Assembly: GCA_964432435.1 (NCBI GenBank)
Contig: CAYSNL010000004.1
Coordinates: forward strand, 1-41,792
DNA length: 41,792 nt
Reading direction: 5' to 3'
Source of the DNA: Candidatus Woesearchaeota archaeon
Lineage (GTDB): Archaea; Nanobdellota; Nanobdellia; SCGC-AAA011-G17; JACPIM01
The translations under genes and the position numbers were made by a program. How positions within the stretch are numbered: position 1 is the stretch's first letter; the number at the start of each line of letters is the position of its first letter. Under the pieces are notes generated by a model, which was given only the letters and a program-made list of their open reading frames with translations, ran no database searches and was not told the origin of the DNA. Positions 4,630 through 41,752 of the stretch are shown here, piece by piece.

Positions 4630-4630
4630 T

Positions 4631-6629: not shown

Positions 6630-6651
6630 ACCTTTAATTTTGATAATTGAT

Positions 6652-10099: not shown

Positions 10100-11468
10100 T
10101 TTTTTTAAAAACATTCAAAACTTTATATGATTTCATAAGTTTAAAATTTTTTAATGATGTTGTATTCTTTGATGAAATTAAATAATTTACATCTTCATAA
10201 GTCCTAGTGTCGACTCTTGAAACCCCAAATTCAAACCAAACATTCCTTGTTTCATTTATTTTAGAATTACTCTGATATTTATACTCTTGAAAATTTGTTT
10301 TATTATTTAATACTAGTTGAAGATCCTGCCAGCTTATTAGTTCGTTGATGTCTTTTCCCCAGTAAATTAATGAATATTCTAAATATGCATCAGATTGATT
10401 TTCGTTTCCCGCAAAGAAAGTTTCATGAGGGAAATCTTTTGCTATCTGGTTTAAATCTTGTTGAATTAATTTTTCAGAATTATCTGCAAAACTTGGAGAT
10501 AACAAGAAAATTATTAGAATTATCGAGATTGTTGAATTTATGATTAATTCTTTTTTTGTAATAACTTTAGTTAACAATAAAACAGCAATAGGTGCTAAAA
10601 TTAAAACATACCTTAATTGATTACTTGATGAAAAAAACATTAAGGTTGTTAGTAATAAAAAGATTAATTCTTTTTTATACTCTTTTAAATTTAATTTATA
10701 GATTCTAAATAAAAATGGTGAAATAATTACTAAATACAAAACATAGTTTATTATCGGGTTTGTAATATATGTATAGTTTCCTTGTCTCAAATAAACAAGG
10801 AGTGAACCGCCAAAAAATCTGAATAAAGAAAAGAAAGGGAAGTTGAATAAGGAATAATCTACTATTAATCTTATTGAAAAAGCGATTAAGTAAAACAAAG
10901 CAAAGAATAGACTTTCCTTTAAAGTTCTATTAAAGAAAAAAACTATAATAAAAATGATTGAAATTGGGATCATAGAGTCCCATAATATTGATGATAGACC
11001 TAAGGGTAAAGAGGAATAGACTAAATACTTCAATTTTTCTTTTGATTCATACTCTTTTATGAATTTATATGAAAGTAATAATAGGAAAGCAGAAGGTAAT
11101 ATTGGGCTTATCTGAGGGATCATATACCAGACAATTGGCGATAATACCCAAAGAAATAATGATTTTTTATCTTTTGTTATATTATACAATAATAAAGCTG
11201 TAAACACCAAGAAAGAACTATTTACTAATCTAGCAAAAAATAATGATGGATATATTTTTAAAAATTGAGCTAAAAATAGACCATAAACCCATGAGTGCGT
11301 GCTTCTTATATGAGAAACTATATTATTTGAGAAGTATTTTGCTACAGCTAAATAATCACCTACATCAGTAAATAGGACTTTTTTTAATAATATATCTAAT
11401 ATTACTACAGCTAGTGAAAACCCTAGTATTATCAAGATTATGCCTTTGTTTTTAATTTTTTGGATCAA
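10092..11468 (-). CDS. Multi-pass membrane protein, probable GT-C fold glycosyltransferase
   Basis: About 10-11 TM segments; first loop TDVGDY, late NQLRYVL motif and soluble C-terminal domain. Divergent from the methyltransferase-asnB-GT2 operon; TTG start. Confidence 0.6.
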   Translation of the reverse strand: MIQKIKNKGIILIILGFSLAVVILDILLKKVLFTDVGDYLAVAKYFSNNIVSHIRSTHSWVYGLFLAQFLKIYPSLFFARLVNSSFLVFTALLLYNITKDKKSLFLWVLSPIVWYMIPQISPILPSAFLLLLSYKFIKEYESKEKLKYLVYSSLPLGLSSILWDSMIPISIIFIIVFFFNRTLKESLFFALFYLIAFSIRLIVDYSLFNFPFFSLFRFFGGSLLVYLRQGNYTYITNPIINYVLYLVIISPFLFRIYKLNLKEYKKELIFLLLTTLMFFSSSNQLRYVLILAPIAVLLLTKVITKKELIINSTISIILIIFLLSPSFADNSEKLIQQDLNQIAKDFPHETFFAGNENQSDAYLEYSLIYWGKDINELISWQDLQLVLNNKTNFQEYKYQSNSKINETRNVWFEFGVSRVDTRTYEDVNYLISSKNTTSLKNFKLMKSYKVLNVFKKIK

Positions 11469-19253: not shown

Positions 19254-20273
19254 ATGGAAGAAGGATTTGAATTAAAAAAACACTCAAATTATTTTTTTGT
19301 TGGTAGTTTTGTTATTATTATACTTGCTTCAATTATTACTGTTTGGCCCTTTCTTGGTGCAATTGTTGGAGCAATAGTACTTACATATATTGTTTATCCC
19401 ATCTATGATCTCATATTGAGATATTTAAAAAATGAAACTATTAGTTCTCTTATCACTTCTCTACTTGTGTTCATCTTAATGTTATTACCTTTTGTATTTT
19501 TGGGGACTTCAATTTTAAATGAAACTACTACTTTTTTTTATAGTGTAAGAACTATAAATTTTGATACATTAGGGCTAGACTATATAAATAGTTATTTTGG
19601 TGGTAATATTGATGTTGGTTCATTTATTAAAGATGCTTTAAATAAACTGTCTACTACTTTAGTGCAAAATGCACATGACTTTATTATTGACATACCAAAA
19701 AAAATATTGGCGTTGTTTGTGCTTTTCTTTTTAATGTTTTATTTATTAAAAGATGGAAAAAGACTAATGAACAATATAAAAGAGGCCTTGCCTTTAAAGA
19801 GAAGATATAAAGAAGATATTGCTAAAAAATTTAATGATACTATATCTGCTACTTTATACGGCGTTGTTTTAACCGGTATAATACAAGGTATAATTGGAAC
19901 AATAGGGCTGTTAATTTTTAAGGTTAATTCACCATTTTTATGGGGTTTTGTAATGATAATATTAGCCATGATTCCTTTAGTAGGGGCGGCTTTTGTTTGG
20001 TTTCCTGCCTCTTTAATAAAGCTTGCCTCTGGGGATATAACTAATGGTATAGGCCTATTGTTATATGGTATTTTAATTGTGAGTACTATTGATAACATTA
20101 TAAGACCTAAATTAATTGGAAGCAAAGGAAAAATTCATCCTGGTTTGGTTTTTTTAGGTGTTTTGGGGGGGTTACAGGTTTTTGGTTTAATGGGCGTTTT
20201 TATCGGTCCTTTGATACTAGCTATATTAACTGTATTTTTTGAGATTTATACAAGTGAAGAATATGAATCTTAG
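19254..20273 (+). CDS. AI-2E family transporter
   Basis: Multi-TM; FYLLKDG, QGIIG, IPLVGA..VW.P, IDNIIRPKLIG, HP..VFLGVLGG and GVFIGPLILA. ATG at 19254 preferred over the track start 19185. Confidence 0.9.
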   Translation: MEEGFELKKHSNYFFVGSFVIIILASIITVWPFLGAIVGAIVLTYIVYPIYDLILRYLKNETISSLITSLLVFILMLLPFVFLGTSILNETTTFFYSVRTINFDTLGLDYINSYFGGNIDVGSFIKDALNKLSTTLVQNAHDFIIDIPKKILALFVLFFLMFYLLKDGKRLMNNIKEALPLKRRYKEDIAKKFNDTISATLYGVVLTGIIQGIIGTIGLLIFKVNSPFLWGFVMIILAMIPLVGAAFVWFPASLIKLASGDITNGIGLLLYGILIVSTIDNIIRPKLIGSKGKIHPGLVFLGVLGGLQVFGLMGVFIGPLILAILTVFFEIYTSEEYES

Positions 20274-21741
20274 AGTTAAAAGGGTGGGCCTTTCTAGTGG
20301 CGGTCCTTTAATAGTAATAATTAATTACTTAGATGCTATAAAAACAGGGTTAAATGCTCTTGATAGAGTTAGAATTTTATACAAGAAAAGAGAAATGGTT
20401 TGTGTTGTTAACATAGCTGCTAATCATAATGTTGGCAGTAGTGAGATTGGATTATTCGATGAAGTAATTGACAGTATAAAGGTAAAGGAAGGGGATTTTG
20501 TTGATGTTGAATATGAAAATAAACCCATATCTATTAGTTATATAAAAGACAAACTTTCAGGAAAAAGATTAAATGAAAAACAGATAAAAGAAATAATAGA
20601 TGATATAGTAAAAAATAAATTAAGTGAGGTGGAAGCTTCTTACTTTATAGCTGGTATTTATGTTCATGGTTTAGATGAAATAGAGACTCTAGCAATGATA
20701 AATTCTATTGCTAGTGAAGGTAAACCAATGAGTTGGGGTAAAAAAATTGTAGTTGATAAACACTCAAGTGGTGGGACGGCTGGGAATAGAACTACAATGA
20801 TAATTGTTCCAATTGTGGCTGCTGCTGGCGTTTGTATTCCAAAGACTAGTTCAAGGGCTATTACTAGCCCAGCTGGTACTGCAGATTCTATGGAAGTCTT
20901 GGCCAATGTTTCTTTTTCAGCAGATGAAATAAAAAAAATTGTAAGTAAAACAAATGGTTGTATAGTTTGGGGTGGTACTTTAGATTTAGCGAGTGCTGAT
21001 GATAAGTTAATAAAAATTGAAAAGACCCTCGGGTTAGATCCGGAAGGCACTTTATTGAGTAGTGTTCTTGCAAAGAAAAAAGCTGTTGGTGCAACACATG
21101 TTTTAATAGATATTCCTTACGGGGATGGCGCAAAGATAGGTAATAAAATTAAAGCTAAAAACCTAAAAAGGAGGTTTATCAAACTTGGAAGGAAATTGGG
21201 TATGAATATAAAAGTGATTTTAACAGACGGAAGTGAACCTATTGGAGATGGAATTGGTCCTAGTTTAGAAGCAATAGATATATTAAAAGTATTAAGATGT
21301 GAGGAAGATGCTCCGCAAGATCTTAAAGATAAAGCAGTTATGATGGCTGGTTTGATATTAAAGATGGCTGGTAAAGGTAATGAAAGAACTGCATTAGAAA
21401 TATTAGAATCTGGTAAAGCTTATTCGAAAATGAAAGAGATCATCGAGGTGCAAGGGGGAAATGAAAATATAAAACCAAGAGATATTAAACTTGGAAGATA
21501 CTCTTATGTTTTTGAATCAAAAAAAACAGGCATAGTAAAAAGAGTTGATAATTTAATGATAAATAAAATAGCAAGATTTTCAGGAGCTCCTGGTGATAAA
21601 TGTGCTGGTATATATTTATTTGTACATAAAGGGGATTATGTAAAAAATGGAGATAAGCTGTTTGCAATCTACTCTGAAGATAGTAACAAATTAAAACATA
21701 GTTTAAACTTATTAAAAGAAGAAGTAATAACTATTGTATAG
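20263..21741 (+). CDS. deoA: AMP phosphorylase (thymidine phosphorylase family)
   Basis: N-terminal double-psi barrel-like region, DKHSSGG..GNRTT, PKTSSRAITSPAGTAD, WGG..LASADD, QGG and GAP.DK.AG motifs. ATG at 20263 overlaps the transporter stop. Confidence 0.95.
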   Translation: MNLRVKRVGLSSGGPLIVIINYLDAIKTGLNALDRVRILYKKREMVCVVNIAANHNVGSSEIGLFDEVIDSIKVKEGDFVDVEYENKPISISYIKDKLSGKRLNEKQIKEIIDDIVKNKLSEVEASYFIAGIYVHGLDEIETLAMINSIASEGKPMSWGKKIVVDKHSSGGTAGNRTTMIIVPIVAAAGVCIPKTSSRAITSPAGTADSMEVLANVSFSADEIKKIVSKTNGCIVWGGTLDLASADDKLIKIEKTLGLDPEGTLLSSVLAKKKAVGATHVLIDIPYGDGAKIGNKIKAKNLKRRFIKLGRKLGMNIKVILTDGSEPIGDGIGPSLEAIDILKVLRCEEDAPQDLKDKAVMMAGLILKMAGKGNERTALEILESGKAYSKMKEIIEVQGGNENIKPRDIKLGRYSYVFESKKTGIVKRVDNLMINKIARFSGAPGDKCAGIYLFVHKGDYVKNGDKLFAIYSEDSNKLKHSLNLLKEEVITIV

Positions 21742-22389: not shown

Positions 22390-23934
22390 ATGAATAATAA
22401 ACGTTGGTATATTCTTTTTAGTGTTTTAATTCTTTTAATGGTGATATATGTTTTTGCTGAACAATTACCTGGAAATAGAAATAGTGGTGGTATTGGTTTT
22501 AATTTTACTGTTACCACATATAGAGGTGGTCTAATCAATTGGACTGGTGGTAATGGTGGTCAACAACCAGCTTTAGCAAATAATTCTGAAATAATGGCTG
22601 GAGTGTTAAATCTATCTATAACTCTTGATGTTGCTAATGGTACAACAAATGTTTCTTGGTATATTGCTAATGCGTCTGATGATTCTCAAAAATGGATATT
22701 TATAACTGATTTAAATGTTTCAAATGCAACAGGGTTTATTGGCTATGATTTATCAACAAATCTTGATTTTGCTGCTATAACAAGAGATAACGCAAGAACT
22801 TATAGAATTAGGATAAATGCAACAAACTTATCAACTTATAATGGAAGTCTATACGGATATGGTGGTGCTGGTGGTACAAGTAATGGCAACCAAACGATTA
22901 GGATATTAACTATAAAGATTTATCCAAATCAATTGAATAGAGGGCATAGTAATGGTACTGTTATTCCTAATGGTTATTATAAAAAGGCAGATGGTACTGC
23001 TGTTAATAATATAACTCAATTTGCTAATGTTACTGGAACTGTTAGATTTAATGCTAGTATAGCCGCTGGTAATAATATGACTTCAAACGTAACTTGGTAT
23101 GCAATTAAAGGAGCTACAGAGGTAGTTCTTGGATCAAATCATACGATAGGTGGTACTGACTTGGTATTTGATACAGCTAATGGTTCATTACCTGATGGTT
23201 GGTATAATATAACTTTAGCAGTTACTAATTTAACTAATGGAAGTGGTATTGCAGGAAAAAATTATTTATTTAATATGGCAAATACCAGAAACATAACTAT
23301 CTTAAATATACATATAGATAATATTGCGCCCGCGGTGAGTGTTACAACTAGTGATACAAATAGTGTAGTATACACTAGAGGAGAACAGACTGTTACATGT
23401 GAATATTCAGATCCTACTGGTGGTGCTGGTTTAGTTTCCTCTTCGAGGCAATTAGAATTAGTAAAACCAAATGGTGATGTTATAACTTATACTGATACTG
23501 ATGCGCTAGAACATACATTTAGTGAAACTGATACTGCTTCAACTGGTACATATACAGCCAAATGTAGGGTTACTGATGGGGTAGGCAAAGAAACTGTGGC
23601 AGAAAAAACATTTGATGTATGGGCTAGAGGTGGTGTTTCAAGTGCAACTGCTGCTGGAAAGAAAGCTAAAGCTATAGAAGAAATAGAAGGTGGAGAAGCA
23701 GCTGGAGAAGAGGTTGCACCTACTGGACCAACTGGTGCTGCTGCAGCTGGCGGAGAAGGAGCTGTTCCTAGTGGAGCTGGTACTACCGGTAAAGCCGGCG
23801 CAGGTACAACTGTTGCAGTGATAGTAGGTATAGTAGTAATTGCAGGGGGCATTATTTACTTCCTAGTAAAGGGAAAACCAGGAAAGAAAGGACAAATAAA
23901 ATTCAGTAGAGCTGAATTAATGCCTAAAAGATAA
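22390..23934 (+). CDS. Heavily N-glycosylated cell-surface protein with C-terminal TM anchor
   Basis: Signal peptide; about 25 N-x-S/T sequons in the first ~305 aa; Ig-like ID..AP.V..YT..C.VTD..G domain; Gly/Ala/Thr linker; TM and basic tail. SD GAGGTG upstream. Confidence 0.8.
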   Translation: MNNKRWYILFSVLILLMVIYVFAEQLPGNRNSGGIGFNFTVTTYRGGLINWTGGNGGQQPALANNSEIMAGVLNLSITLDVANGTTNVSWYIANASDDSQKWIFITDLNVSNATGFIGYDLSTNLDFAAITRDNARTYRIRINATNLSTYNGSLYGYGGAGGTSNGNQTIRILTIKIYPNQLNRGHSNGTVIPNGYYKKADGTAVNNITQFANVTGTVRFNASIAAGNNMTSNVTWYAIKGATEVVLGSNHTIGGTDLVFDTANGSLPDGWYNITLAVTNLTNGSGIAGKNYLFNMANTRNITILNIHIDNIAPAVSVTTSDTNSVVYTRGEQTVTCEYSDPTGGAGLVSSSRQLELVKPNGDVITYTDTDALEHTFSETDTASTGTYTAKCRVTDGVGKETVAEKTFDVWARGGVSSATAAGKKAKAIEEIEGGEAAGEEVAPTGPTGAAAAGGEGAVPSGAGTTGKAGAGTTVAVIVGIVVIAGGIIYFLVKGKPGKKGQIKFSRAELMPKR

Positions 23935-28858: not shown

Positions 28859-31150
28859 TTAAGCTGTTACAGCGGCAACTACAGGTTCATTTATTGTACC
28901 TGTAACCTTAACTTCCTTTCCACTTAGTTTACCTGCGTAGTTTTCGTAGTTTGCAAGTACTTTAGCTGCCATTCTTGTTTCTGTTGCTTCATAACCTGCT
29001 ACTAATAATGCTACATGTTCTCCATTCTTAGCCATTTGAATAATAGCTTCTCCTGGAGATAACTGTTGCCTTGCACTTTCACAAGTCATTAGACCTGCTG
29101 CAGCAACTGCATTGTTAGCACATGGTCCACCAACTAAGATTAAATCGTAGTTAGCTTCTGAACCAGAAACTTCTGTATCTAGTCTTGTGTTGATTGAAAT
29201 ATCTGCAGGTATGTATGAAACTGCACCACCAGATACTTTTGTTGTTGGTCCTTTAACTACAACGTTAGCTTGGACTTCATCAGATGGTATTAACAATACA
29301 ACCTGGTCTGAAGCACCATTTGACTTAGGGTCTTTTATAATAATGCCATAAGAGGTTCTATGGTCTTCATCTTTACTACCAATGTTATGATGTGTTGTTG
29401 CTAACAATCTATTAAACCAAGTTACTTCGCTTACTTCTTCAGTAGAAGCTGTAGCACCTAATGATGTTACTAAATCACTAGCCAAGGTCCAGTTTGTTCT
29501 GATTACATCTTCCTCATTACCTAATTCTGATGATGAATCACCTGTAGTGTTCACTACTATTTGTACCTTGTTCTGGTCTAAATCTATAGTTGAAACGTTA
29601 CTTAAGCTAAAGATGACATTACTTTGCTTAGTGTCTCCAAAGTTAAGTTCTGCAAATTTAGCTGATCCTAACAAATCTGGTGTAATGTTTCCTGCATAAA
29701 CTACATTTGGGTTCTTATTTGAGTCTTTGTAGAAAAGCATAGCGCTTTTCTCATTTTTAACATCAACATAGAACTGTAACCAGATCTGACTTGTTTTAGC
29801 GTCTGACGGACTATTTGAAGAATTTGTGAAATTAAGGTCAGCTGTTTTGATCACAAATCTATCTGTTCCTGGGGCACTAATATCTATTACTTTAGCACTT
29901 GTTAAACTACCTAGTGCTCCAGATTTAGCAGTATCAATACTAGACGAATACTTCATGGTTACTTCCAAATAATCGTTGTCAGGCACAGTTAAGCTATCTA
30001 AACAAAGAGATACATATTCATTTGGTAGATCATAACATTCTCCAATACCTGGCGGATTATCTGTATCATCGTCTTTTGTAAATGCATTTTGAATACCTAG
30101 TGTAGGACCTGCTGGCGATTGTTGTGGAAATTCAGATTGTGTAGAGTTTATAGTTGTTGATGCGTCGGCTCTTAAATTAGCTATTGTCCATTCCCAATCT
30201 GGATCGTTTTCATCTTCTCCAACATAAGCATCTCCATCTTCATAAGTGGCTTGTGAATCTTCACCAATTATTAATGATGCTGATCTTTCTGACATTTCAT
30301 TTGTGTAGAAAGTATCATCATTGCTTATTTCAATGCCATTAACAGTTCTAGTGGATCCTGACGAAATAGTTTCTCTTGTTCCATCAACATCTACTAAAAT
30401 AGAACCACCTTCACCTACATTTTGCAAGGTAATTTTTTTACCATTAACTGTAACTACATCACCTACGTCCATGAAATACTCGCCACCTACATAAGCTGTA
30501 AACTTTGTGGCTGAGCCAACACTTGTAATTTTTAAAGTTTTTCCAAGAAACTTTAGTTCTAATGGATCTGATGCTGTTGCTTTAGATACGTTTATTTTGT
30601 CATCAAACGCATAGTAATACTTAATTCCTTTTGATACTGCTTCTAAGAATACATTACTTTCATAGTCATCATCTCCACTTGTAAGACTCGTTTCTACTGA
30701 TGGTGATGCTTTAGATAAAACTAACTCATCATGCATATCATAGTCTTTACCTTGGAAATTTATTTGTGTGTCTTGAAAACTTTCTATGTCTGTATCATCT
30801 AGGCTCCAATCAAAACCAAAGCCTGTTGTATTAGCAATAGCTTTGCCTAGTGGAATATCTTCTGTTACTCCACCTGAGACTTGTAACCCACCACCACCAG
30901 ATGTTACTGGAGTTTTTGCATCAAATTGTAGTTTTGTAGCAATGTTTACCGCTCCTAATGTATCAGAAGCTGCTGCATTTGCACCAACTACTATTGTTGT
31001 TGCGTCATTAAAAACTCCCTCTTTGCTGATAAATGGCTGTGGGTAAGTTGCTAAGTCTTGAGCTACTGCACCAGCCATTGTTGCACCTAACATTGCAACA
31101 CCTGCGCCGATAGCGGCCATTCTTTTAATGGCTTTTCTAAATCTTTGCAT
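28859..31150 (-). CDS. S-layer protein (Methanococcales-type S_layer_N/S_layer_C architecture)
   Basis: Signal with basic N-region KAIKRMAAI; N-terminal DLATYPQPF..IVVGANAAASD; C-terminal LILVGGPCAN..ALLVAGY...T..AA.VL; several N-x-S/T sequons; strong SD GGAGGTG at 31159-31165. Confidence 0.92.
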   Translation of the reverse strand: MQRFRKAIKRMAAIGAGVAMLGATMAGAVAQDLATYPQPFISKEGVFNDATTIVVGANAAASDTLGAVNIATKLQFDAKTPVTSGGGGLQVSGGVTEDIPLGKAIANTTGFGFDWSLDDTDIESFQDTQINFQGKDYDMHDELVLSKASPSVETSLTSGDDDYESNVFLEAVSKGIKYYYAFDDKINVSKATASDPLELKFLGKTLKITSVGSATKFTAYVGGEYFMDVGDVVTVNGKKITLQNVGEGGSILVDVDGTRETISSGSTRTVNGIEISNDDTFYTNEMSERSASLIIGEDSQATYEDGDAYVGEDENDPDWEWTIANLRADASTTINSTQSEFPQQSPAGPTLGIQNAFTKDDDTDNPPGIGECYDLPNEYVSLCLDSLTVPDNDYLEVTMKYSSSIDTAKSGALGSLTSAKVIDISAPGTDRFVIKTADLNFTNSSNSPSDAKTSQIWLQFYVDVKNEKSAMLFYKDSNKNPNVVYAGNITPDLLGSAKFAELNFGDTKQSNVIFSLSNVSTIDLDQNKVQIVVNTTGDSSSELGNEEDVIRTNWTLASDLVTSLGATASTEEVSEVTWFNRLLATTHHNIGSKDEDHRTSYGIIIKDPKSNGASDQVVLLIPSDEVQANVVVKGPTTKVSGGAVSYIPADISINTRLDTEVSGSEANYDLILVGGPCANNAVAAAGLMTCESARQQLSPGEAIIQMAKNGEHVALLVAGYEATETRMAAKVLANYENYAGKLSGKEVKVTGTINEPVVAAVTA

Positions 31151-33192: not shown

Positions 33193-33750
33193 TTAAATTG
33201 ATTCTTGTGGTTGTACACATAATGTAATTTTAGCTGTTATTTGTGGTGAAACACTAACTGTAGCTGAGCCTGTAATTGATGCTTGATTTAGTGATTCACA
33301 ATTTGTACTTGGGTTGTAGATTGGTAATGGATTAGTGCCATGAGCTGTAAATTCAAGCTTATATTTTTTATTTTGGAATGTTCTTCTTAATATATCCCTA
33401 ATAAAACTTGGTTTTGAATCACATAACTCCCCTTGTGAAGTTATCGGTTCGCAGCTAGATGGTCTTGCAGGTGAATCTTGGCAACAATTTTTCATAAATT
33501 TACATTGGTCAGACTCTATTTTAGCTGAATTATAGCATTCCACTATTTTTTTAGCTATTGTTGAACCATCTTCTGTATTTGATCTTAAAATAGCATTTAA
33601 CATATTGCTCGCTTGAATACTTTGCCTTTGTAATTCTACTGAGTCAGTTTTAGGCACTATGAGGAATTTTATAGCCATTAAAATAACAAATACTAGTATA
33701 AGGACTATTACCATAAGCCCTATTATCTCTATTTGGGCTTTTTTAGTCAA
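33193..33750 (-). CDS. Type IV pilin-like protein (class III signal peptide)
   Basis: MTKKA/QIEIIGLMVIVLIL.. followed by a Cys-rich head domain. Confidence 0.75.
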   Translation of the reverse strand: MTKKAQIEIIGLMVIVLILVFVILMAIKFLIVPKTDSVELQRQSIQASNMLNAILRSNTEDGSTIAKKIVECYNSAKIESDQCKFMKNCCQDSPARPSSCEPITSQGELCDSKPSFIRDILRRTFQNKKYKLEFTAHGTNPLPIYNPSTNCESLNQASITGSATVSVSPQITAKITLCVQPQESI

Positions 33751-34303
33751 GTTTAAACACCTCTATACTTAAAATGCCAATTTTATATTCGTTTTTTAAA
33801 GGATAATAGACTGAAATGGGGTTTTTTCTTACTTCTTTATTTGTATTTGATGAAGGAATACCTGGGTCATAGATTGTGAACTTTTGACACTTGTTGTCTG
33901 GATAATCATTACTAAAATGACTAGCTATGTCACCTATTGTACAATCTGTCTTTTTGTCTTCCTCTTTGACTGGCGGGTATATTATTTCTAAAATAACTTT
34001 TTTATCATTTCCAAAAAAACCACTATAATACTCTTTGTAATTTTGGTCGTTAGAATTTAAAATATTTGCCAAGGAGAATATCTTAATTGAGTTAATAACT
34101 CCTGTTTCATGAGTTAATTCTGCCATTGAAGAAACAGAATCAGTTAATATTATCGCATCTACATCTGTAAATCTTTCACCAGTTTCTTTTAATCCTTTAT
34201 TTAGGAAAGAATAATAAATAACCATCCCTATAAAGATTATTACTATTAGTATTAATAATACAAAAATCATTTCCATAAACTGGACTTGGGCTCTTTTTTT
34301 CAT
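33743..34303 (-). CDS. Type IV pilin-like protein (class III signal peptide)
   Basis: MKKRA/QVQFMEMIFVLLIL..; Cys pair in the head; C-terminal Y.IGILSIEV strand. Confidence 0.75.
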   Translation of the reverse strand: MKKRAQVQFMEMIFVLLILIVIIFIGMVIYYSFLNKGLKETGERFTDVDAIILTDSVSSMAELTHETGVINSIKIFSLANILNSNDQNYKEYYSGFFGNDKKVILEIIYPPVKEEDKKTDCTIGDIASHFSNDYPDNKCQKFTIYDPGIPSSNTNKEVRKNPISVYYPLKNEYKIGILSIEVFKLD

Positions 34304-35262
34304 ATTAACAACCTTGTAGTTTCAGTACCTTTATATAAAACAGGACAATTAGTTGTTTTTAGGGCTTCATTATCTGTTTTAATATTCTTGGCAGCATCTA
34401 TACTTTGGGTTGTGCTTAGAATTTTTAGTTGTTCTTCGAAATTATAGGAACTATCACAGCCTTCTGCTTTTTCTAGTCTTCCTAGGGTATCTTGGTAAAT
34501 TTCAACAATGTTGCTTATCCTTTGTTTTGCTAGTCCCTTAATGATACAGTTAAACTGATCGTAATCTGCTGAAAAAATAGCTGCATAAACCATTGTGTCA
34601 CCCCAAACTGGAAGTTCATTTCCTTGTTTAAATTTAACTTTTGGGTTTTCACTGTCTAAACCAATAAACTGAACTGTTTTAACATTATTCGGTAAATTTG
34701 CAGGCGGGTTGCTATCAAAATAAACTAATACTGTTTTATCTAAAAAATTTGGTAAAGCAGTGACCTTTTGTGGGTTAAATCTTTTTGGGAATTTATCAAA
34801 AAAATACTTAGGTAAATCTCCTGTTGGGTTAACAAAATAAAACCTGGTGTTTTGGTCTGCTACAAAGTATAGATTATCAATTTTAAATGGATAATTCCAG
34901 GCTAAAGTCCAAGCTTGAACTGATTTTCCTTCGATATCAAACGGCACGAAAATTAATTTTTTTGTTTCTCTTTTATCTTTTTCATTTTTTGGTATCTTTA
35001 AATAAATCTTTTTATCTGTATTATCGCACTCTATTCTAATCTTTGAGTCTTCTGAAAATTGGATTACTTTTTCTGAATTTGATGCTAGGGCGAAAGAAGC
35101 CAAGTTTTTTTCTAAAACCAATATGTTTTCTGTTTTTGTTAATTTTTCTGAAAAACCTAATAAATCCTTTCCAAAACTAAAAAAGAAAACCAAGATGATA
35201 GCACCAGCAATTATAGTAAACATAATAGTAAAAACAAAAATAGATACTCCTCTTTTTTCCAT
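34300..35262 (-). CDS. Large pilin-like protein (class III signal peptide)
   Basis: MEKRG/VSIFVFTIMFTIIAGAIILVFF; WTLAWNYPFKIDNLYF motif; C-terminal Cys cluster. Confidence 0.7.
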   Translation of the reverse strand: MEKRGVSIFVFTIMFTIIAGAIILVFFFSFGKDLLGFSEKLTKTENILVLEKNLASFALASNSEKVIQFSEDSKIRIECDNTDKKIYLKIPKNEKDKRETKKLIFVPFDIEGKSVQAWTLAWNYPFKIDNLYFVADQNTRFYFVNPTGDLPKYFFDKFPKRFNPQKVTALPNFLDKTVLVYFDSNPPANLPNNVKTVQFIGLDSENPKVKFKQGNELPVWGDTMVYAAIFSADYDQFNCIIKGLAKQRISNIVEIYQDTLGRLEKAEGCDSSYNFEEQLKILSTTQSIDAAKNIKTDNEALKTTNCPVLYKGTETTRLLI

Positions 35263-35302: not shown

Positions 35303-35839
35303 TTATATTTTTTCTATTAGTACTTCATTTCCTTTACTTTCTAGCCTAATATTTAATTTATATCTGGAAGCTGCTAAATCAATGCATAAAGGATTACTAG
35401 GAGCAACTGTAAATTTGCTGTTTATATTTGCTTTTTCTGGCAAAGAAGCTGGATTTTCTCCTTTTGTCTTTTTTTCACTATATTTCCAAAAGACAACGTT
35501 ACTAGTACCTACTGAACCTAATAGTTTGCTCTTAAAGCTTGGATCATTACATTTACCTGTTAAACTACCAAAATCTTTATTTTGGGAATCAATAAAACAA
35601 AAACATTCTACGGAGTTTGGAAATGTGAAAGTGAATTTATTACTTGAGCCTTCTTCTAGATTATAAAAAGTTGTAACATCCTCATTTATTCTTTTGGCTA
35701 TATCTGCTATCTGAGCAAAATTAGCTCTTTCACTTAAATCATAATAAATTTTAATACCAAAAACAAGAACCATAGCTGCTACAACTATGGCAAAGATAAA
35801 AATGAATGGTTCACCGAAAATTTGGGCTCTTTTTTTCAT
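35303..35839 (-). CDS. Type IV pilin-like protein (class III signal peptide)
   Basis: True start at 35839: MKKRA/QIFGEPFIFIFAIVVAAMVLVFG; CFCF motif; C-terminal LESKG..VLI. Confidence 0.75.
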   Translation of the reverse strand: MKKRAQIFGEPFIFIFAIVVAAMVLVFGIKIYYDLSERANFAQIADIAKRINEDVTTFYNLEEGSSNKFTFTFPNSVECFCFIDSQNKDFGSLTGKCNDPSFKSKLLGSVGTSNVVFWKYSEKKTKGENPASLPEKANINSKFTVAPSNPLCIDLAASRYKLNIRLESKGNEVLIEKI

Positions 35840-35855: not shown

Positions 35856-36122
35856 TTAGATATAAATCTTATCATGATGATCGAAATCATCAAAATAAAT
35901 AGTATCAGTATTTTTATTATATTGAAAAATTAAAACAAAGTGTCCGAGATGGACACTTTTTGAATCCTTCATAGAATATCTTAAATTTTTGTAATGATCT
36001 ATATCGATACAGTTTACTATTTCATTAATCTTTTTTATTAGTTGCTCATATAACCTTTTATCTTTTTTGGACAGTTTTTTAAGTATTTCTTGTAGATTCT
36101 CGCTTAGTTCAAAATTATGCAT
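35856..36122 (-). CDS. relE: RelE/ParE-superfamily (RelE/StbE-like) toxin
   Basis: LKKL.KKD..YEQL.KKI.EI, HYKNLRY, VHLGHFVLIF and FDDFDHHDKIY motifs; directly downstream of the antitoxin. Confidence 0.82.
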   Translation of the reverse strand: MHNFELSENLQEILKKLSKKDKRLYEQLIKKINEIVNCIDIDHYKNLRYSMKDSKSVHLGHFVLIFQYNKNTDTIYFDDFDHHDKIYI

Positions 36123-36130
36123 ATTGCCCC

Positions 36131-36367
36131 TTAACTCGTAGCTTTCCTTAATTCTTCTACTGAACTAAATTTAATATACTTGCCTTTTCTTATTTTTTCA
36201 AGCTTCTCCAAATATTCTGGCCTTAATTCTGGTTCCAATACTTCTTCCTCGTATTTTTCAATAATAATGCCTATTGCTTCTGATTTATCTTTTAAACCAT
36301 ATTTTGCTTTAACAATGTTTAAAATCCTATTCTTGTTTTCATCTAAATTTATCAATGCTTGTACCAT
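36131..36367 (-). CDS. Antitoxin (DUF2683-like)
   Basis: MVQALINLDE..NRILNIVKAKYGLKDKSEAI, LEPELRPEY and a C-terminal F.SVEELR; 78 aa, upstream of the toxin. Confidence 0.78.
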   Translation of the reverse strand: MVQALINLDENKNRILNIVKAKYGLKDKSEAIGIIIEKYEEEVLEPELRPEYLEKLEKIRKGKYIKFSSVEELRKATS

Positions 36368-36430: not shown

Positions 36431-39400
36431 TTAAGGATAAACTGTAAATGTAGATGGTGGATTATTAAACTCATCTGTACACTTTATTATATAAATTTGA
36501 TTTATTAAAGTAGCTTCATGGGTTATTGAATTTGGATTTGACATATCTGAACCAGAACCAAAGCTAAAGTCACTATCTGAATATTGACATGTTGAAGGTT
36601 CATCTGTTGTTATATGTAACGTGCCTGATTCTTTGTAAACTGAGACTAATTTGGGTGGTTCTTTATCGGCTTTTATAGAAAATTCTATGATATCTTTAGC
36701 CTCATTACCAGCTTTATCTACACAAGTTATATAGAACTTGTAGTTCCCTTCTTTTAAAGGAGATAAAGGTTGTGTACTTTCTGTTGATAAAGTATTTACG
36801 AAAGCAGGCATATTAGTGAATGGCATATTTTCTTGCTGTGAATAACCACAAATTGCCCTCCCTGATTCTGCTCCTTTTGATGTAGTAACTGATAAAACTA
36901 TATCACTGCCTGTTTTTAGTTCGCCTTGTGGTGACTTATCTACTATTTCCAATTTATTAGTTGAAATTAAAGTGTAAGGGTAGCCTTGAATGTTCTTGTT
37001 TCCTGCTTTATCTTTACATCTGAAATAATAAACATTTCTTATATTCCCTGGTGTTGGTGTTGGTTCTGATGAAGTTGATTCAGATGATGATGTAGACTGA
37101 GCTTTTTCTAAATTTAAAGTTGTTGAACATTGATAAGCCATATTAGACGAGATATCAATTCCTGAAGAAGCACAGTTAAATTGGTTTTGCATTGCATCAA
37201 AATCTATGTCTCTATTTGGTTCCCATTTACAAACCGCTGGTTCATTAACAAATATTGAAATAGGTGCTTCATTTATATTTTCTTGCATATACGTACCTGA
37301 AGTTATTGAAGTGCTCGTAATTTCTGGAGGGGATAAATCTGGACCTGCTTCAATTGCAAATTTAATGTAATAATCTTTACCATTTGCATTACCTGTTGAA
37401 TCTTTACATCTTAGATAAATAGTGTATTGGCCTCCATTTGTTAATTGCAAAGCTTGTTGGGTTGCTAAATCTGAAGGTAACATGAAGGTCATATTATGTT
37501 TTATTAAGAAATAGCTTGATCCAAAATCAAATTCCATTGCATCAAATGCATCTTTTGAATTTACTTTTTCAGAAGGTTTGGTTGTGAACTTGCATTGGGC
37601 AGCTTCATCTGTTATTAATCCTAATTTTACTGGTGTGAATGGTGGTATTTTATTTACAACTGTGAAACCATTATTTGAATCTTCCTGGATTTGATAAGCT
37701 TTCATATAATCTTTGTCTGGTCTTATTCTTGGTGAGGCAGCATCATTTGGTTGAATATTTGTACAAATTTCATGATCTGTTCCAGCATTTACAATTGAAC
37801 ATAATTTTCCTAATGATTTACATCTATATTCTGAACACGGTTTTGTTTCATCATTACATTTTTCACAATCAGAACCGCCATCTGGCGCTTCCCATGCCTT
37901 ACAAATAAACCCTACTTTTCCTTTTTGAGTATCTGCAGCTAACCAATCAACTAATTCATAAATTGTCCAGATCCAAGCTATTGCATTTGCTATACCCAAA
38001 GCATAACCTGCGTATGTTGGTGCAGGTGCTGCTGTGGCTGTGCTTGTTATGCTATTTTCTGTTACAACATTATTTCCGGTAACTCTAAATAAATCTTTTG
38101 ATCCTTCAACAGCTGAAATACCTGCAGGAGGAGTTTGAACTGTTGTCGGGGTTAAAATTTTTTGGCTTATTAATGTCTGAGCTTGTGGAGAGTTGATAGA
38201 ATACACACCTGGTGTAACACCTAAAGAAGGATTTACAATGGAAGGATTTACAATAACCTGATCACCACTAACTATAGCTGTTGGATTTATTGATGTATAA
38301 GTTTGCGTCTCTGTAAATTTAAATCCTCCTTTTATAAGTTCGCTTTGTGTAAATACTGTACGTGTTGGAATTGTCTGTCTCGCTGCAAAAGTTTGTGGTA
38401 GGGTAGTTAATTTCCCAAATCCTGCTGATTGTAACGAGCTTGCCATTGATGCTCTTCCAGCACCAGCAACACCACCAATACCGGCAAATGGTGCTATCAA
38501 AGTCATTGGACCAAGTAAAAATCCACCTGCCAATCCTGAAAGGCTGTTGGAAGCTAGTCCTATCAAACTGGTACCCCCAATTATAGTTAAGGGTAAAGCT
38601 GATTTTTTAAAGAAATCAGAAAATCCTGGTTTTTTAGGACCACCACCTGTTTTTGGTGGTTTTTCTAGAGCATATTTCAATAAATTTGGTCTTGCCCTTT
38701 CCATTAATTTTTCTCTAATTCTATCTGGAATTGCCAAAGCACCTTTAGGACCTTCTGCTTTTACATCAAAACCACCTTCTGTAAACACACCAACATAATT
38801 GAAGTAAGCACCACAATCTCCTATTGATCTACAAACAGAATGTGCTGCTGTAAATGCATCATCTGTTAAACATTGAGGATTATAGGTAACTTTCCAAGAA
38901 CTTTTACCTAATATATGATCCCAACCTGTTCTTGTAAATCCAACTTCACAATCAACATTAGCTTGAGAACAAATATCATTGCCTACTGAATCACCAGTAT
39001 AAACTCCACCCCCTTGGTTGGTAGGATTAGATGTACCTAAATTTAAATTTTGATTTCCTCTGATTTGTGGTGTATCTGCTGGTGAACCTGACGGTTGGCC
39101 GGGTGTTGCTGGTGTATTTATGATCGGTTGTTGATTTGGTTGGTTTGTAATTACTGGATTAGGATTCGGGTTAACTACCTGAGCGCCTGTTATTTCTAAA
39201 ATAGCACTACCCGTTGGATTATTTGTTGTTGATTGTCTGGATGAAATTAAATTATTATCAGCCCAAAATCTTAATCCCGGCTTTACTAAAGGAACACAAA
39301 TGCCTCCTTTATTTGAGATCCCGGAATTGAGGAAAGAACAATCTCTCGTAGAAATATCTTCACAACAAGATTGGACTTGTGATTGGGAAGATAAAGTATT

Positions 39401-40951
39401 GCATTGCGCGCATGTATCAAACCTATTTTGACGGCAAGCTGCTTCTGAATAACCTGAATCTGAGGATCCGAGATTATTTTTAGAAGGATCAAAAATATTA
39501 CCTAAAGGAGAAGATGAAAATGGAAGTTGAGGCAAATTCTTTGTAATTTCAAGAAATAAAGATGTTCCTTCGCCTGTAGTTGATTGATCATTTGAATACG
39601 ATTGGGTGCAAAGCTCTTCCCTAAAATCCTTACATGGTTCAATTATTTGTTCACCATTAATACAAGAAGCCCTAAAATGACGTGAACCTGCTCTATCTTG
39701 TGGGGCCCCGTATTCATCTGGGCCTATTGGACCATCATAAAGACACCAAGACTCGCCTAATTCCTTGCTGCCACCAGAGGCATCTGGAGAATTATTATCT
39801 TTTGTGGTGTCTTTACAATTAAGATCCTCGCAAATAAATTCACCATCTTTTTCCCCACAGAGAGTACCTTGAGTATAATCACAGTTTCCACAATTTTCAT
39901 CGTTTGGAGAAGCTGTACATAAAGAATCAGGATCTTGTAAAACTCTACCTTGACTATAGGATAAGGATTTTTTTTCTTGAGAGTTTCCTAGGAAAACATT
40001 TTCAGGATTATTACCTGAATCAAACCAGTAAACGTCTTCATTATAACAACTTAAATGATGTAATTTTGCAACTTCACATGGAAGTTCGTCATTGCTGCAT
40101 AAATAACCTTCAAAAAAACCCGTTTTTTCTTGTACTTCGGTGTTTTGATTAAAATTGGCTACTGCTTGGCCTGAAATTTGATTACTTTGTGATGTTGAAG
40201 AGGATGTTGGAGAGGTTGTTGTTTCTGTGCTTGATTTCTTGCAAACCGGCTTAGCATTTGGATCAGTGCTTATTTGAACTGGCTCTAAACCAGAGCAACA
40301 CTGTTGATTTAGGGAAGTATCAACAATTGAATTTTTAGGTATGCAATTTTCAAATCCAGGAGATTGCTGTTCTGGAGATGGCGGTAAAGTTTTTTGGATT
40401 CCACATTCTTCTGCTGTTGTAAATGAACATTGACCACGAGCTTGAACACAGCAACCTTTAACCCCTGACTTTACTGAAGATAAACAAGTATATTCATCTT
40501 GAATTCCTGGATCAAATTTCATTTCAACATTTGGATATTGGGAGGTTACTTGTTTACATTTTGTTAATGTTGAAATAAAAGCTTGATTACTTAACTGACA
40601 GCAACCCACTGAACATTGGGCTATTTGAGAACAATCACCTTTTTGGAAAGTTCTTTCTCCGGCGCTTTTACATTCTGAATTAGCAACATTATTAAAACAT
40701 TCACCGGAATCAGAATCAAAACAACAACCTAAACTACAATAGTCGGTGTTTTCACAGGTTGTAAGAGCATGTTGCTTTGTTTGATCACATTGAGACGAAT
40801 CTGTATAAACACAAAAATCTCCTGATGTTGTTTTTTCACAACATTCTTTATTTTCTTGAGCTTTTACTTTTGGTGCAAAGGATGGAAATGATAAAGTAGA
40901 AAAGACTATTAAAAATATCATAAGAATAGCTTTTTGCTTTACCTTGATCAT
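36431..40951 (-). CDS. Giant (1506 aa) secreted Cys-rich surface protein with internal hydrophobic segments and C-terminal Ig-like repeats
   Basis: Signal peptide (..KVKA/QE); GCC-type Cys repeats in the N-terminal half; Ser/Thr/Pro/Gln linkers; a Cys-free central region with two hydrophobic segments; repeated D..PP.I / T.E.A.C / Y.I.C.D..GN Ig-like units. Confidence 0.8.
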   Translation of the reverse strand: MIKVKQKAILMIFLIVFSTLSFPSFAPKVKAQENKECCEKTTSGDFCVYTDSSQCDQTKQHALTTCENTDYCSLGCCFDSDSGECFNNVANSECKSAGERTFQKGDCSQIAQCSVGCCQLSNQAFISTLTKCKQVTSQYPNVEMKFDPGIQDEYTCLSSVKSGVKGCCVQARGQCSFTTAEECGIQKTLPPSPEQQSPGFENCIPKNSIVDTSLNQQCCSGLEPVQISTDPNAKPVCKKSSTETTTSPTSSSTSQSNQISGQAVANFNQNTEVQEKTGFFEGYLCSNDELPCEVAKLHHLSCYNEDVYWFDSGNNPENVFLGNSQEKKSLSYSQGRVLQDPDSLCTASPNDENCGNCDYTQGTLCGEKDGEFICEDLNCKDTTKDNNSPDASGGSKELGESWCLYDGPIGPDEYGAPQDRAGSRHFRASCINGEQIIEPCKDFREELCTQSYSNDQSTTGEGTSLFLEITKNLPQLPFSSSPLGNIFDPSKNNLGSSDSGYSEAACRQNRFDTCAQCNTLSSQSQVQSCCEDISTRDCSFLNSGISNKGGICVPLVKPGLRFWADNNLISSRQSTTNNPTGSAILEITGAQVVNPNPNPVITNQPNQQPIINTPATPGQPSGSPADTPQIRGNQNLNLGTSNPTNQGGGVYTGDSVGNDICSQANVDCEVGFTRTGWDHILGKSSWKVTYNPQCLTDDAFTAAHSVCRSIGDCGAYFNYVGVFTEGGFDVKAEGPKGALAIPDRIREKLMERARPNLLKYALEKPPKTGGGPKKPGFSDFFKKSALPLTIIGGTSLIGLASNSLSGLAGGFLLGPMTLIAPFAGIGGVAGAGRASMASSLQSAGFGKLTTLPQTFAARQTIPTRTVFTQSELIKGGFKFTETQTYTSINPTAIVSGDQVIVNPSIVNPSLGVTPGVYSINSPQAQTLISQKILTPTTVQTPPAGISAVEGSKDLFRVTGNNVVTENSITSTATAAPAPTYAGYALGIANAIAWIWTIYELVDWLAADTQKGKVGFICKAWEAPDGGSDCEKCNDETKPCSEYRCKSLGKLCSIVNAGTDHEICTNIQPNDAASPRIRPDKDYMKAYQIQEDSNNGFTVVNKIPPFTPVKLGLITDEAAQCKFTTKPSEKVNSKDAFDAMEFDFGSSYFLIKHNMTFMLPSDLATQQALQLTNGGQYTIYLRCKDSTGNANGKDYYIKFAIEAGPDLSPPEITSTSITSGTYMQENINEAPISIFVNEPAVCKWEPNRDIDFDAMQNQFNCASSGIDISSNMAYQCSTTLNLEKAQSTSSSESTSSEPTPTPGNIRNVYYFRCKDKAGNKNIQGYPYTLISTNKLEIVDKSPQGELKTGSDIVLSVTTSKGAESGRAICGYSQQENMPFTNMPAFVNTLSTESTQPLSPLKEGNYKFYITCVDKAGNEAKDIIEFSIKADKEPPKLVSVYKESGTLHITTDEPSTCQYSDSDFSFGSGSDMSNPNSITHEATLINQIYIIKCTDEFNNPPSTFTVYP

Positions 40952-41752
40952 TTAAAGTCCTCTTCTTGGCTCGTCTTCAATGGCAAATTGAAATAGGAAT
41001 TCATCATCTGGACTAGGAATATCTTTAATTTTACAAATGTATAATTTATCGGGATATGGTTGAAGTTTTTGACAAATATATGGTTTATTTGTAATTTGAG
41101 TTTTTGCTACATTAAAGAGTAAAGTATCAAAAAAACCAGAGATACATTCTTCATTTACGATATCATGAGATGCTTCAAATAATCTTCCAAATGGTAAGTT
41201 TACATTAGTTGTGAATTTATCGTTTTCTACAAAGTTACCTCCTTTTGATATCCTAATTTTTTGATTTGCTGTTAATGCTGTTGTATCTTCACCTATATCA
41301 ACGTCAATTGATAAGTCACCTATCTCTTGTATATCCCAACCAATTTTTTTAAATGAAAGTATGTTTAAACACTGTGTTTTTAAATCATCTTTTAGTTTTA
41401 AAGAGAGCTCTTTTTCCATATCACTTTCTGTTAATATTCTGGTTCTACAATTTCTTTGATCTTGAATATTCCATCCGCGATAAGAAACTTTATTATTGAG
41501 ATAATTTATGTAAGTACCTTCTGTTGGATTTAAGTAACCACCTTGTAAAGCCATTTCTCTTATTCTTTGATCTCCTTTTTGGATCAAACAGTTTTGTATA
41601 TGTTCTTCTATTGGTGGGAATTCGTCTTGTAAACTTTTTTCAGTAGCTGTCCCAAAATAAACTTTTTCTCTTAAAAATAAAAATAAAGCAATTAGTACAA
41701 TTAATAATATCCCGATTATGGCAAAAGTAGAGACTTGTCCTCTTTTATTCAT
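40952..41752 (-). CDS. Type IV pilin-like protein (class III signal peptide)
   Basis: MNKRG/QVSTFAIIGILLIVLIALFLFL; conserved-looking IQNCL..MALQGGY motif; SD GAGGT upstream; stop abuts the start of the giant gene. Confidence 0.78.
   Translation of the reverse strand: MNKRGQVSTFAIIGILLIVLIALFLFLREKVYFGTATEKSLQDEFPPIEEHIQNCLIQKGDQRIREMALQGGYLNPTEGTYINYLNNKVSYRGWNIQDQRNCRTRILTESDMEKELSLKLKDDLKTQCLNILSFKKIGWDIQEIGDLSIDVDIGEDTTALTANQKIRISKGGNFVENDKFTTNVNLPFGRLFEASHDIVNEECISGFFDTLLFNVAKTQITNKPYICQKLQPYPDKLYICKIKDIPSPDDEFLFQFAIEDEPRRGL

Follow-up and report, generated by a model that had tools for sequence, protein, structure and literature searches.

The closest described relatives in organisation of the gene considered here are proteins of pilin loci and of archaeal cell surfaces. 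In bacteria, PilY1 lies in the fimU-pilVWXY1E minor-pilin operon. Woese-, Pace- and Nanoarchaeota are abundant, uncultivated archaea with small genomes. Archaeal pilin loci encode large, signal-peptide-bearing, Cys-containing proteins, which Makarova et al. (2016, PMC4858521) describe as putative minor pilins or adhesins, and the Ig-like (immunoglobulin-like) surface proteins of Nanobdella aerobiophila have a C-terminal transmembrane (TM) segment and 13-52 N-glycosylation sites (bioRxiv 10.1101/2023.10.27.564410). In the present study, we analysed 41,792 nucleotides of Candidatus Woesearchaeota archaeon DNA (assembly GCA_964432435.1, contig CAYSNL010000004.1), referred to below as the window, and in it a giant gene (P0001; 36431..40951, minus strand) whose open reading frame (ORF) translates into a Cys-rich surface protein of 1506 aa. 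A first-pass annotation had singled out positions 37940..38597, that is, aa 786-1004, as a hydrophobic hairpin in a Cys-free region that would either anchor the protein with an enclosed insert on the reducing side of a membrane or enter the membrane of a host. The explanation that we prefer, and to which we give about an even chance, is that this stretch is a mid-chain helical-hairpin anchor by which a two-lobed surface protein is held in the membrane of the cell that makes it, with pilin-like proteins as partners.

The cysteine-free centre and its flanking lobes

The giant protein contains 66 Cys, 49 of them in the 713 aa of its N side and 17 in the 490 aa of its C side, and its widest Cys-free gap spans 304 aa, from C713 to C1017. 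With 66 Cys placed at random in 1506 positions (200,000 trials), the median largest gap was 101 aa and a gap of at least 304 aa had a probability of ~1e-5, so that the Cys-free region lies far beyond chance; the coordinates and sequence given earlier were confirmed. The runner-up gap, C552 to C661, is a disordered low-complexity linker too; therefore a Cys-free stretch alone is no mark of a reducing compartment, and Cys-free regions of this protein track low-complexity linkers in general.

Kyte-Doolittle (KD) averages over 19 aa reach maxima at the signal peptide (2.16), aa 786 (1.27), aa 811 (1.68) and aa 983 (1.29), with no hydrophobic peak after aa 1004, in agreement with the earlier statement that a C-terminal TM anchor is lacking. 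The two hydrophobic segments first quoted, aa 786-832 (38456..38596) and aa 980-1004 (37940..38014), are real, but AlphaFold2 (AF2) makes three helices of them, aa 777-800, 804-825 and 980-1004, each of 22-25 residues with a predicted local distance difference test score (pLDDT) of ~60-80. The first, H1 (aa 785-803, ALPLTIIGGTSLIGLASNS; 38543..38599, minus strand like every other part of the gene), is modelled as helix 777-800 at pLDDT ~67-78 and has a KD value of 1.27, a mean hydrophobicity of 0.51, a hydrophobic moment of 0.12 and a Hessa sum of +5.5 kcal/mol (a simple 19-residue sum on the Hessa 2005 scale, as for all Hessa values here). The second, H2 (aa 804-832; 38456..38542), is Gly/Ala-rich with a conserved GGxxxGP, forms AF2 helix 804-825 and has a KD value of 1.68, a mean hydrophobicity of 0.70 and a Hessa sum of +4.1. 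Together, H1 and H2 make a block of 48 aa (aa 785-832) without a single charged residue and with a hydrophobic moment of 0.1-0.2. H3 (aa 980-1004; 37940..38014), a Trp/Tyr-rich helix (pLDDT 75-80) placed right before the C-domain, carries a conserved WxWTIYxxxD motif, with a mean hydrophobicity of 0.6, a KD value of 1.29 and a Hessa sum of +4.1. Elsewhere in the mature protein the lowest Hessa sum is +10.3, compared with +4.1 to +5.5 for H1-H3. Ahead of H1 lies a basic juxtamembrane segment (aa 736-784; 38600..38746) that comprises AF2 helix 745-761 and the K-rich stretch KPPKTGGGPKKPGFSDFFKKS and is kept in the close clade of relatives. G810 of H2 is kept in at least 90% of the sequences of alignment A1, the alignment being uncertain within H2; its pairing with 'YGVYGG' of distant clades is probably a Gly-rich artefact and was not used.

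Between H2 and H3 extends a disordered Thr/Ser-rich insert (aa 833-979, 147 aa; 38015..38455; AF2 pLDDT 30-45), the helices of which are only 6-11 residues long in the model. It holds 16% T, 11% S, nine K+R and six D+E, has no N-x-S/T sequon and three proline-blocked N-P-S/T sites, and matches in composition the two extracellular linkers of the giant protein. Its earlier description as Thr/Pro-rich is right for Thr, which makes up 8.5% of the whole protein, and overstated for Pro, at just 8.2% versus 6.3%.

The centre was compared across 132 family members, in which it was delimited by the motifs [GAS]DC[GD] and C..W..P.GG..C. Its length runs from 119 to 489 aa, with a median of 220; in 100 of the 132 members it has no Cys, and its top 19-aa KD value has a median of 2.26. 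The positions of H1-H3 are unmistakable TM segments (KD 2-4) in about half of the family, and the Hessa sum of the H3 zone is below 0 in 46% of members; judged from sequence, about one member in two thus has a centre that is a genuine anchor of transmembrane grade. In the close clade (P0001-P0013), the insert varies from 36 to 181 aa and is unalignable, H3 (WxWTIYxxxD...GKVxFxCKxWEAPxGG) is strongly conserved and the best-kept helix of the centre, and H1 (FFKKSAxPL...) and H2 (GGxxxGP) are moderately conserved. The alignment of orthologues suggested in the first-pass annotation, with a variable insert between conserved hydrophobic segments as the expected pattern, therefore came out positive in this clade. 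A P-x-G-W turn ahead of H3 recurs among family members. In P0054 and P0063, the sole hydrophobic element is one block of 41-45 aa with a polar TQS/TSS centre.

The flanking lobes are of quite different kinds. Export begins with a Sec-type signal peptide (aa 1-31; 40859..40951) composed of a K-rich n-region, a 19-aa h-region and a cleavage site, between VKA and QE, that was read off the sequence by eye; its KD value is 2.16 and its Hessa sum +0.35 kcal/mol, and it is kept in the family consensus. The probably extracellular Cys-rich N-domain that follows (aa 32-735; 38747..40858) contains the 49 Cys of the N side, the conserved core motifs EDVYWFDSxGN, GESWCLYD, VGSRHYR and IEPCxDFREE, and disordered linkers at aa 243-267 and aa 565-653. 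Its start (aa 36-185; 40396..40846) consists of four tandem Cys-rich repeats of ~40 aa, GCC-x5-G-x-C-x6-8-C. The AF2 model of aa 1-790 has pLDDT >90 across aa 35-240, 278-455 and 500-560, and Foldseek found no significant match for it in PDB (best E 1.1) and none in BFVD, where this N-terminal part alone was searched; the N-domain may, on the model, contain new folds.

The C-domain (aa 1005-1506; 36434..37939) consists of a 7-Cys module (C..W.AP.GG.DC..C) and then tandem Ig-like beta-sandwich domains, every one with a C-x-D-x-x-G-N motif and a pair of invariant Cys located in beta-strands. Modelled by AF2 from 71 aligned homologues, aa 655-1506 reach a mean pLDDT of 80, and aa 1007-1506 form a very confident beta-rich region (pLDDT >90). 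Foldseek against PDB returned solely Ig-like and fibronectin-type-III-like chains for this C-terminal part (PTP-delta, NCAM2, cadherins and the GhpA grappling hook; E 1e-14 to 1e-9), so that at the fold level the predicted structure supports a tandem Ig-like sandwich; being dominated by generic Ig chains, the search is uninformative on the hydrophobic helices themselves. Sequence and profile searches of the whole giant protein against Pfam, NCBIfam (E<=0.1) and PDB yielded only sub-threshold Ig-like or OmpL47-type fragments. The Pfam scores of the C-domain for Big_13, DUF4625 and Y_Y_Y (25.2, 23.4 and 23.2 bits) are below the curated cut-offs (26.6, 27 and 27 bits).

The window population is found in groundwater metagenomes. 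Strain variation is concentrated at aa ~175-325 of the giant protein (~39980..40430), where the assembly breaks in four groundwater metagenomes and where alternative contigs carry clustered single-nucleotide variants, e.g., 17 in 150 nt. Outside this region the gene, with the hydrophobic centre and the insert, is invariant in these four samples, and no within-population hypervariability of the insert was seen there. Strain-level diversification sits, in other words, in the N-terminal ectodomain. None of the RNA runs examined holds the giant gene.

Membrane topology

Both lobes look extracellular, considering the Sec signal, the 49 + 17 mostly invariant Cys, the Cys pairs of the Ig-like domains, and the flank after H3, which is net acidic (112 K/R versus 151 D/E). 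With both lobes outside, an even number of membrane crossings is needed. Judged again by sequence, a block of the P0054/P0063 type can keep both domains on one side solely as a hairpin.

Sequon counts carry the second part of the argument. The ratio of observed to expected N-x-S/T sequons is family-wide 0.28 in the N-domain and in the centre alike, and 0.90 in the C-domain. Proline-blocked N-P-S/T amounts to 21-22% in the N-domain and centre, at a Pro frequency of 3%, and to 2% in the C-domain. The inserts of the close clade hold one sequon where 13.0 are expected, and their K+R (79) and D+E (82) are nearly balanced. Owing to this sequon avoidance, the absence of any K/R excess and the linker-like composition, the insert is probably extracellular, and the earlier placing of it on the reducing side of a membrane is disfavoured by the same counts and by its resemblance to extracellular linkers.

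Sequon counts differ among the other proteins of the window. The giant protein itself has two against 17.9 expected and the five pilin-like neighbours have none against 9.4, while a 514-aa protein (22390..23934; 25 versus 7.7) and a 458-aa protein (10092..11468; 9 versus 3.8) serve as sequon-enriched controls. The S-layer protein has 9 versus 8.1 expected, and the cytoplasmic proteins of the window have counts at expectation.

We are leaning, on these grounds, towards hairpins without net crossing, with all else outside, over a two-pass topology; the blocks of P0054 and P0063, the recurrent P-x-G-W turn, the sequon and charge counts of the insert, the depletion shared by N-domain and centre, and the linker-like insert are what favour it. 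In such an arrangement, the Cys-rich N-domain would be exported via Sec, the uncharged H1-H2 block (aa 785-832) would enter the membrane of the producing cell as a helical hairpin, and the insert (aa 833-979) would act as a hypervariable disordered extracellular spacer. H3 would lie in or on the membrane and lead directly into the Ig-like C-domain, both disulfide-type domains staying outside. The giant protein would work with five proteins bearing class III signals, chiefly the ~260-aa partner encoded upstream, and with them build an envelope or adhesion structure characteristic of Woese-, Pace- and Nanoarchaeota. What the analysis shows directly is that the segments are hydrophobic and helical, that the architecture is conserved, that the gene belongs to an operon, that the C-domain is Ig-like, that the insert is hypervariable and that sequons are avoided. 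For the window protein we infer membrane embedding, hairpin topology, an extracellular insert, cooperation with the pilin-like proteins, and an adhesive or envelope role.

Several points weigh against this explanation. First of all, the proposal of a membrane segment gains from helices that are uncharged, of low hydrophobic moment and conserved in position, yet the segments of the window protein are only marginally hydrophobic (KD 1.3-1.7; Hessa +4 to +5.5) and belong to the weakest quartile of the family. The three AF2 helices are an odd count, and H3 would need interfacial or re-entrant placing in the window clade. The segment before H1 is strongly basic, and the positive-inside rule would put it in the cytoplasm. 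Furthermore, that sequon avoidance marks extracellular exposure is something we infer from sequence counts, and C-domain sequons are near expectation, so that this argument does not place the C-domain. One clade (P0023, P0025-27 and P0033) has an H3 with R/Q/D and KD <1; therefore not every member can be anchored via H3. Finally, when hydrophobic segments are roughly counted in the family members, odd numbers are frequent. Parity by segment counting was set aside as not decisive, odd and even numbers being mixed across the family, and a cytoplasmic C-domain in a three-pass arrangement is countered by the invariant Cys pair in every Ig-like domain and by the acidic flank after H3.

Unlikely, though the best placed of the competing explanations, is the two-pass topology implied by the first-pass annotation, in which H1-H2 together cross from outside to inside and H3 returns to the outside, the insert forming a loop in the cytoplasm. 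Clear TM helices are the homologues of H3 elsewhere in the family, and their acidic C-terminal flank suits the outside; the first 40 aa past H2 carry four positive charges and no acidic residue; the clade P0014-P0022 has an H1 that is a good 23-aa TM segment and an H2 of just ~12 aa; and the insert is Cys-free. Against these stand the sequon depletion of the insert (1 versus 13 expected), which is like that of the N-domain, together with the three blocked N-P-S/T sites of the window insert, the overall equality of K+R and D+E, the composition like that of the two extracellular linkers, and the fact that AF2 makes of H1 and H2 two full-length helices.

The family, its operon and the pilin-like partners

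A word-indexed search recovered 72 homologues of 1058-1560 aa, of which the named ones are labelled Woesearchaeota or Nanoarchaeota; their annotation is 'hypothetical' except for one 'PT domain-containing' entry. In each of these 72 first-pass homologues, which have ~60-70 Cys, a gap free of Cys lies in the centre and shows hydrophobic peaks. The profile search, over 1.84 billion cluster representatives (clusters at 50% identity), gave 2,423 representatives at E<=1e-30, the top 150 all full length, and GTDB species representatives hold at least 556 family loci. The best 80 genome loci all come from Woese-, Pace- or Nanoarchaeota (Nanoarchaeia) or from metagenome-assembled genomes labelled just 'archaeon'. 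The family architecture is a signal peptide, a Cys-rich N-domain, a Cys-free hydrophobic centre and an Ig-like C-domain. Literature searches found no published description of the family, which is previously uncharacterised and very widespread in DPANN archaea of the Woese-/Pacearchaeota type.

Variants of this architecture occur at related loci. Locus L005 (14509..18341) has a split form, in which a 569-aa N-domain protein is followed by a 708-aa protein that has its own signal peptide and carries the hydrophobic block together with the C-domain, a natural split which shows that these two belong together. Tandem modules of partner A and giant protein are found in L003 (6710..17798), paralogous giant-family genes lie upstream in L001 (5078..8440) and L006 (5933..9175), and in a reduced paralogue of 813 aa the centre is merely GWAGCAAGAYLGPVGCGAGRLVVLLSGWG, with two Cys flanking its GP turn. 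Two short antisense ORFs of the plus strand (38547..38798 and 37675..37908) overlap the giant gene of the window and match none of the homologues found.

A class III signal consists of a short basic leader, a (K/R)(G/A) cleavage motif and then ~20 hydrophobic residues. The N-termini of five neighbours of the giant gene, all on the minus strand, fit this prepilin-like signal, each with ~20 hydrophobic residues after the motif. Immediately upstream is partner A (266 aa; 40952..41752), identified by sequence and motif scan, in which the leader MNKRG precedes QVSTFAIIGILLIVLIALFL. On the downstream side follow B (178 aa; 35303..35839; MKKRA, then QIFGEPFIFIFAIVVAAMVL), with homologues in L003, L007 and 22 of the 80 loci; C (320 aa; 34300..35262; MEKRG, then VSIFVFTIMFTIIAGAIILV; 25 of 80 loci); D (186 aa; 33743..34303; MKKRA, then QVQFMEMIFVLLILIVIIFI; 14 of 80); and E (185 aa; 33193..33750; (TTG)TKKA, then QIEIIGLMVIVLILVFVILMAI; 12 of 80). 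The mechanically called ORF of B starts at a TTG (to 35893), the ATG at 35839 with the class III signal being probably the true start. An ATG-based motif scan of the window picked up four of the five together with one internal false positive and missed E, which has a TTG start. E has weak sub-threshold matches to DUF7288 (Pfam) and BasB (NCBIfam) on its N-terminal helix. A to E gave only sub-threshold matches to the curated pilin and archaellin families of Pfam and NCBIfam, and ten orthologues from L003, L006 and L007 gave none. Internal prepilin cleavage within the giant protein was also considered and rejected, before H1 (FFKKS, then A) as an exported domain of 785 aa would then have to serve as leader, and before H3 (P-x-G, then W) as these sites have no basic residue.

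The association is a close one. A hidden Markov model of partner A matched at 70 of the 80 genome loci, without exception on the same strand, and 83 of 102 partner A matches are followed, at most 400 nt away, by a long ORF with a median of 1205 aa and 64 Cys. Compared over L001, L003, L005, L006 and L007, the recurring order is A (~260 aa), the giant gene, B (~170), C (~320-350), D (~180-195), E (~145-185 aa) and then an S-layer gene or ribosomal operon. In the window, the S-layer protein (763 aa; 28859..31150, minus strand; Pfam S_layer_C, 7.5e-15) forms the downstream end of the neighbourhood and has the same place in L003 and L007. PCNA (and RpoL/TFS) lies upstream of the operon in L001, L003, L005 and L006, with the S-layer gene or ribosomal operon downstream. 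Such synteny with core genes points to vertical inheritance and not to a mobile element.

These neighbours bear on another explanation, in which the helices of the giant protein are, in the window clade, protein-protein contacts outside the lipid bilayer that bundle with the N-terminal hydrophobic helices of A to E. The bundle would sit in the membrane before assembly, or else at the core of a pseudopilus or short type-IV-like filament, with the giant protein carried like a tip or adaptor subunit. This explanation is quite unlikely, although it draws on the strict co-occurrence with a dedicated ~260-aa class III partner, of which every tandem paralogue has its own, and on a hydrophobicity that is marginal in the window protein and nearly absent in the P0023 clade, where the operon is unchanged; the adhesin or minor-pilin proteins of archaeal pilin loci offer a precedent (PMC4858521). 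On the other hand, no pilus assembly ATPase, platform protein or prepilin peptidase was found among 32 window ORFs (Pfam; about a dozen smaller ORFs left out) or among the called genes of the five related loci, the neighbours match no pilin family of Pfam or NCBIfam, and the strongly hydrophobic relatives would stay in the membrane. Pilus assembly genes may be encoded elsewhere in the genome.

We regard as improbable the bolder idea that the operon builds a contact apparatus of Nanoarchaeia-type DPANN, its hairpins joining a pilin filament core or entering the membrane of a partner. If true, Woese- and Pacearchaeota would have in this family the attachment or bridge component that has long been sought.

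Other genes of the window may be mentioned briefly. Between the giant gene and B, an 88-aa ORF and an upstream 78-aa ORF (35856..36122 and 36131..36367, minus strand) look like a toxin-antitoxin pair; the former has a sub-threshold ParE_toxin match (20.8 bits versus a cut-off of 23; E 5.8e-4), and the latter was outside the search. This insertion at the junction is absent in L003, L006 and L007. The window also holds an e2b2-type (IF-2B family) isomerase, a form III RuBisCO and an AMP-phosphorylase-like gene (6640..10099 and 20239..21741), which constitute the CO2-fixing shunt of archaeal nucleotide salvage that is frequent among DPANN, and a glycosylation cluster (823..5620) of PMT_2, GT2, a putative flippase of the Polysacc_synt family and GT4.

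Comparison with known systems

The first-pass annotation had drawn analogies to TraN, fusexin/HAP2, viral fusion proteins and pore-formers. None of them was recovered by Foldseek, Pfam, NCBIfam or PDB searches, and the suggested check by AlphaFold and Foldseek returned generic Ig chains for the C-terminal part and nothing for the N-terminal part. No fusexin/HAP2 or class II fold was matched in PDB by aa 1-790 or aa 655-1506, and with no hydrophobic peak past aa 1004 there is no fusexin-type C-terminal TM segment after the ectodomain. The heptad helices of class I fusion proteins do not appear after H2 in the AF2 model, which has the disordered insert instead and no C-terminal TM segment. The Pfam/NCBIfam scan of the whole protein (E<=0.1) and the PDB searches gave no TraN match, and among PilY1-type features, vWA, beta-propeller and DUF2341 had no Pfam match, the N-domain being without a PDB fold match. 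A glycine zipper in H1/H2 was rejected, GxxxG occurring three times versus 2.6 expected (P=0.50) and small-xxx-small eight times versus 9.9; in H3, small-xxx-small occurs four times versus 1.5 (P=0.02), which is marginal.

It is very improbable that the Gly/Ala-rich helices serve as a fusion peptide or pore hairpin in the membrane of a host and open a cytoplasmic bridge. The resemblance is compositional only, namely an uncharged Gly/Ala/Leu/Phe-rich segment after the basic site FFKKS (then A), to which may be added the marginal small-xxx-small excess of H3 and its Trp content, like that of membrane-proximal regions. Cultivated DPANN are described as living as episymbionts, a point that bears on the lineage only. 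Foldseek gave no structural likeness to fusexins, viral fusion proteins or pore-formers; the disordered insert leaves no long heptad-type helices past the hydrophobic block, and a C-terminal anchor is missing; H1/H2 show no excess of GxxxG; in the producer's own membrane, relatives with KD 2.5-4 would act as stop-transfer sequences; and a locus among core housekeeping genes, with a family near-universal in the clade, suits an envelope component. Least probable of all is that the helices are buried in a soluble globular core or form a low-complexity linker without membrane role, for their Ala/Gly richness, their AF2 pLDDT of just 60-80 and the polar versions in some clades are outweighed by 48 aa without charge and with near-zero hydrophobic moment, by strong TM-grade segments at the same site in about half of the family, and by adjoining domains modelled at pLDDT >90 next to less confident helices.

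The mid-chain anchor of a two-lobed surface protein remains, therefore, the preferred explanation. The family is among the most conserved lineage-specific proteins of Woese-, Pace- and Nanoarchaeota, its gene sitting amid core genes, and its defined parts, topology model and sequon-avoidance signature are concrete targets for antibodies, labelling in cryo-electron tomography and metaproteomics. The analysis also separates the features that have been shown from the attractive but unsupported idea of a 'host channel'.

Set beside the systems already described, the giant protein combines familiar parts in a different way. With Big_13, DUF4625 and Y_Y_Y, its C-domain has in common the beta-sandwich fold and a DxAGN-type motif, whereas each of its own Ig-like domains adds an invariant Cys pair (C-x-D-x-x-G-N). 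Class I fusion peptides and membrane-proximal regions, fusexins/HAP2, TraN and glycine zippers are alike in their Gly/Ala-rich uncharged segments, Trp-rich helix or Cys-rich ectodomains, but the relatives of the giant protein keep the element as an ordinary TM-grade anchor. Like PilY1 and the adhesins of archaeal pilin loci (PMC4858521), it is a large Sec-exported, Cys-containing non-pilin amid four to five pilin-like genes, for which a surface or adhesive role is presumed; unlike them, it has no DUF2341, vWA or beta-propeller, has a predicted central hairpin between two ectodomains, lies in a locus without ATPase or platform gene, comes with a dedicated ~260-aa partner, and is restricted to Nanoarchaeia-type DPANN. 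The closest likeness at the cell surface is to SlaB and the Ig-like proteins of N. aerobiophila, which share tandem Ig-like domains, a signal peptide, a membrane anchor and adjacency to an S-layer gene; in contrast to theirs, the predicted anchor of the giant protein is internal, and the protein itself is very Cys-rich and strongly sequon-depleted.

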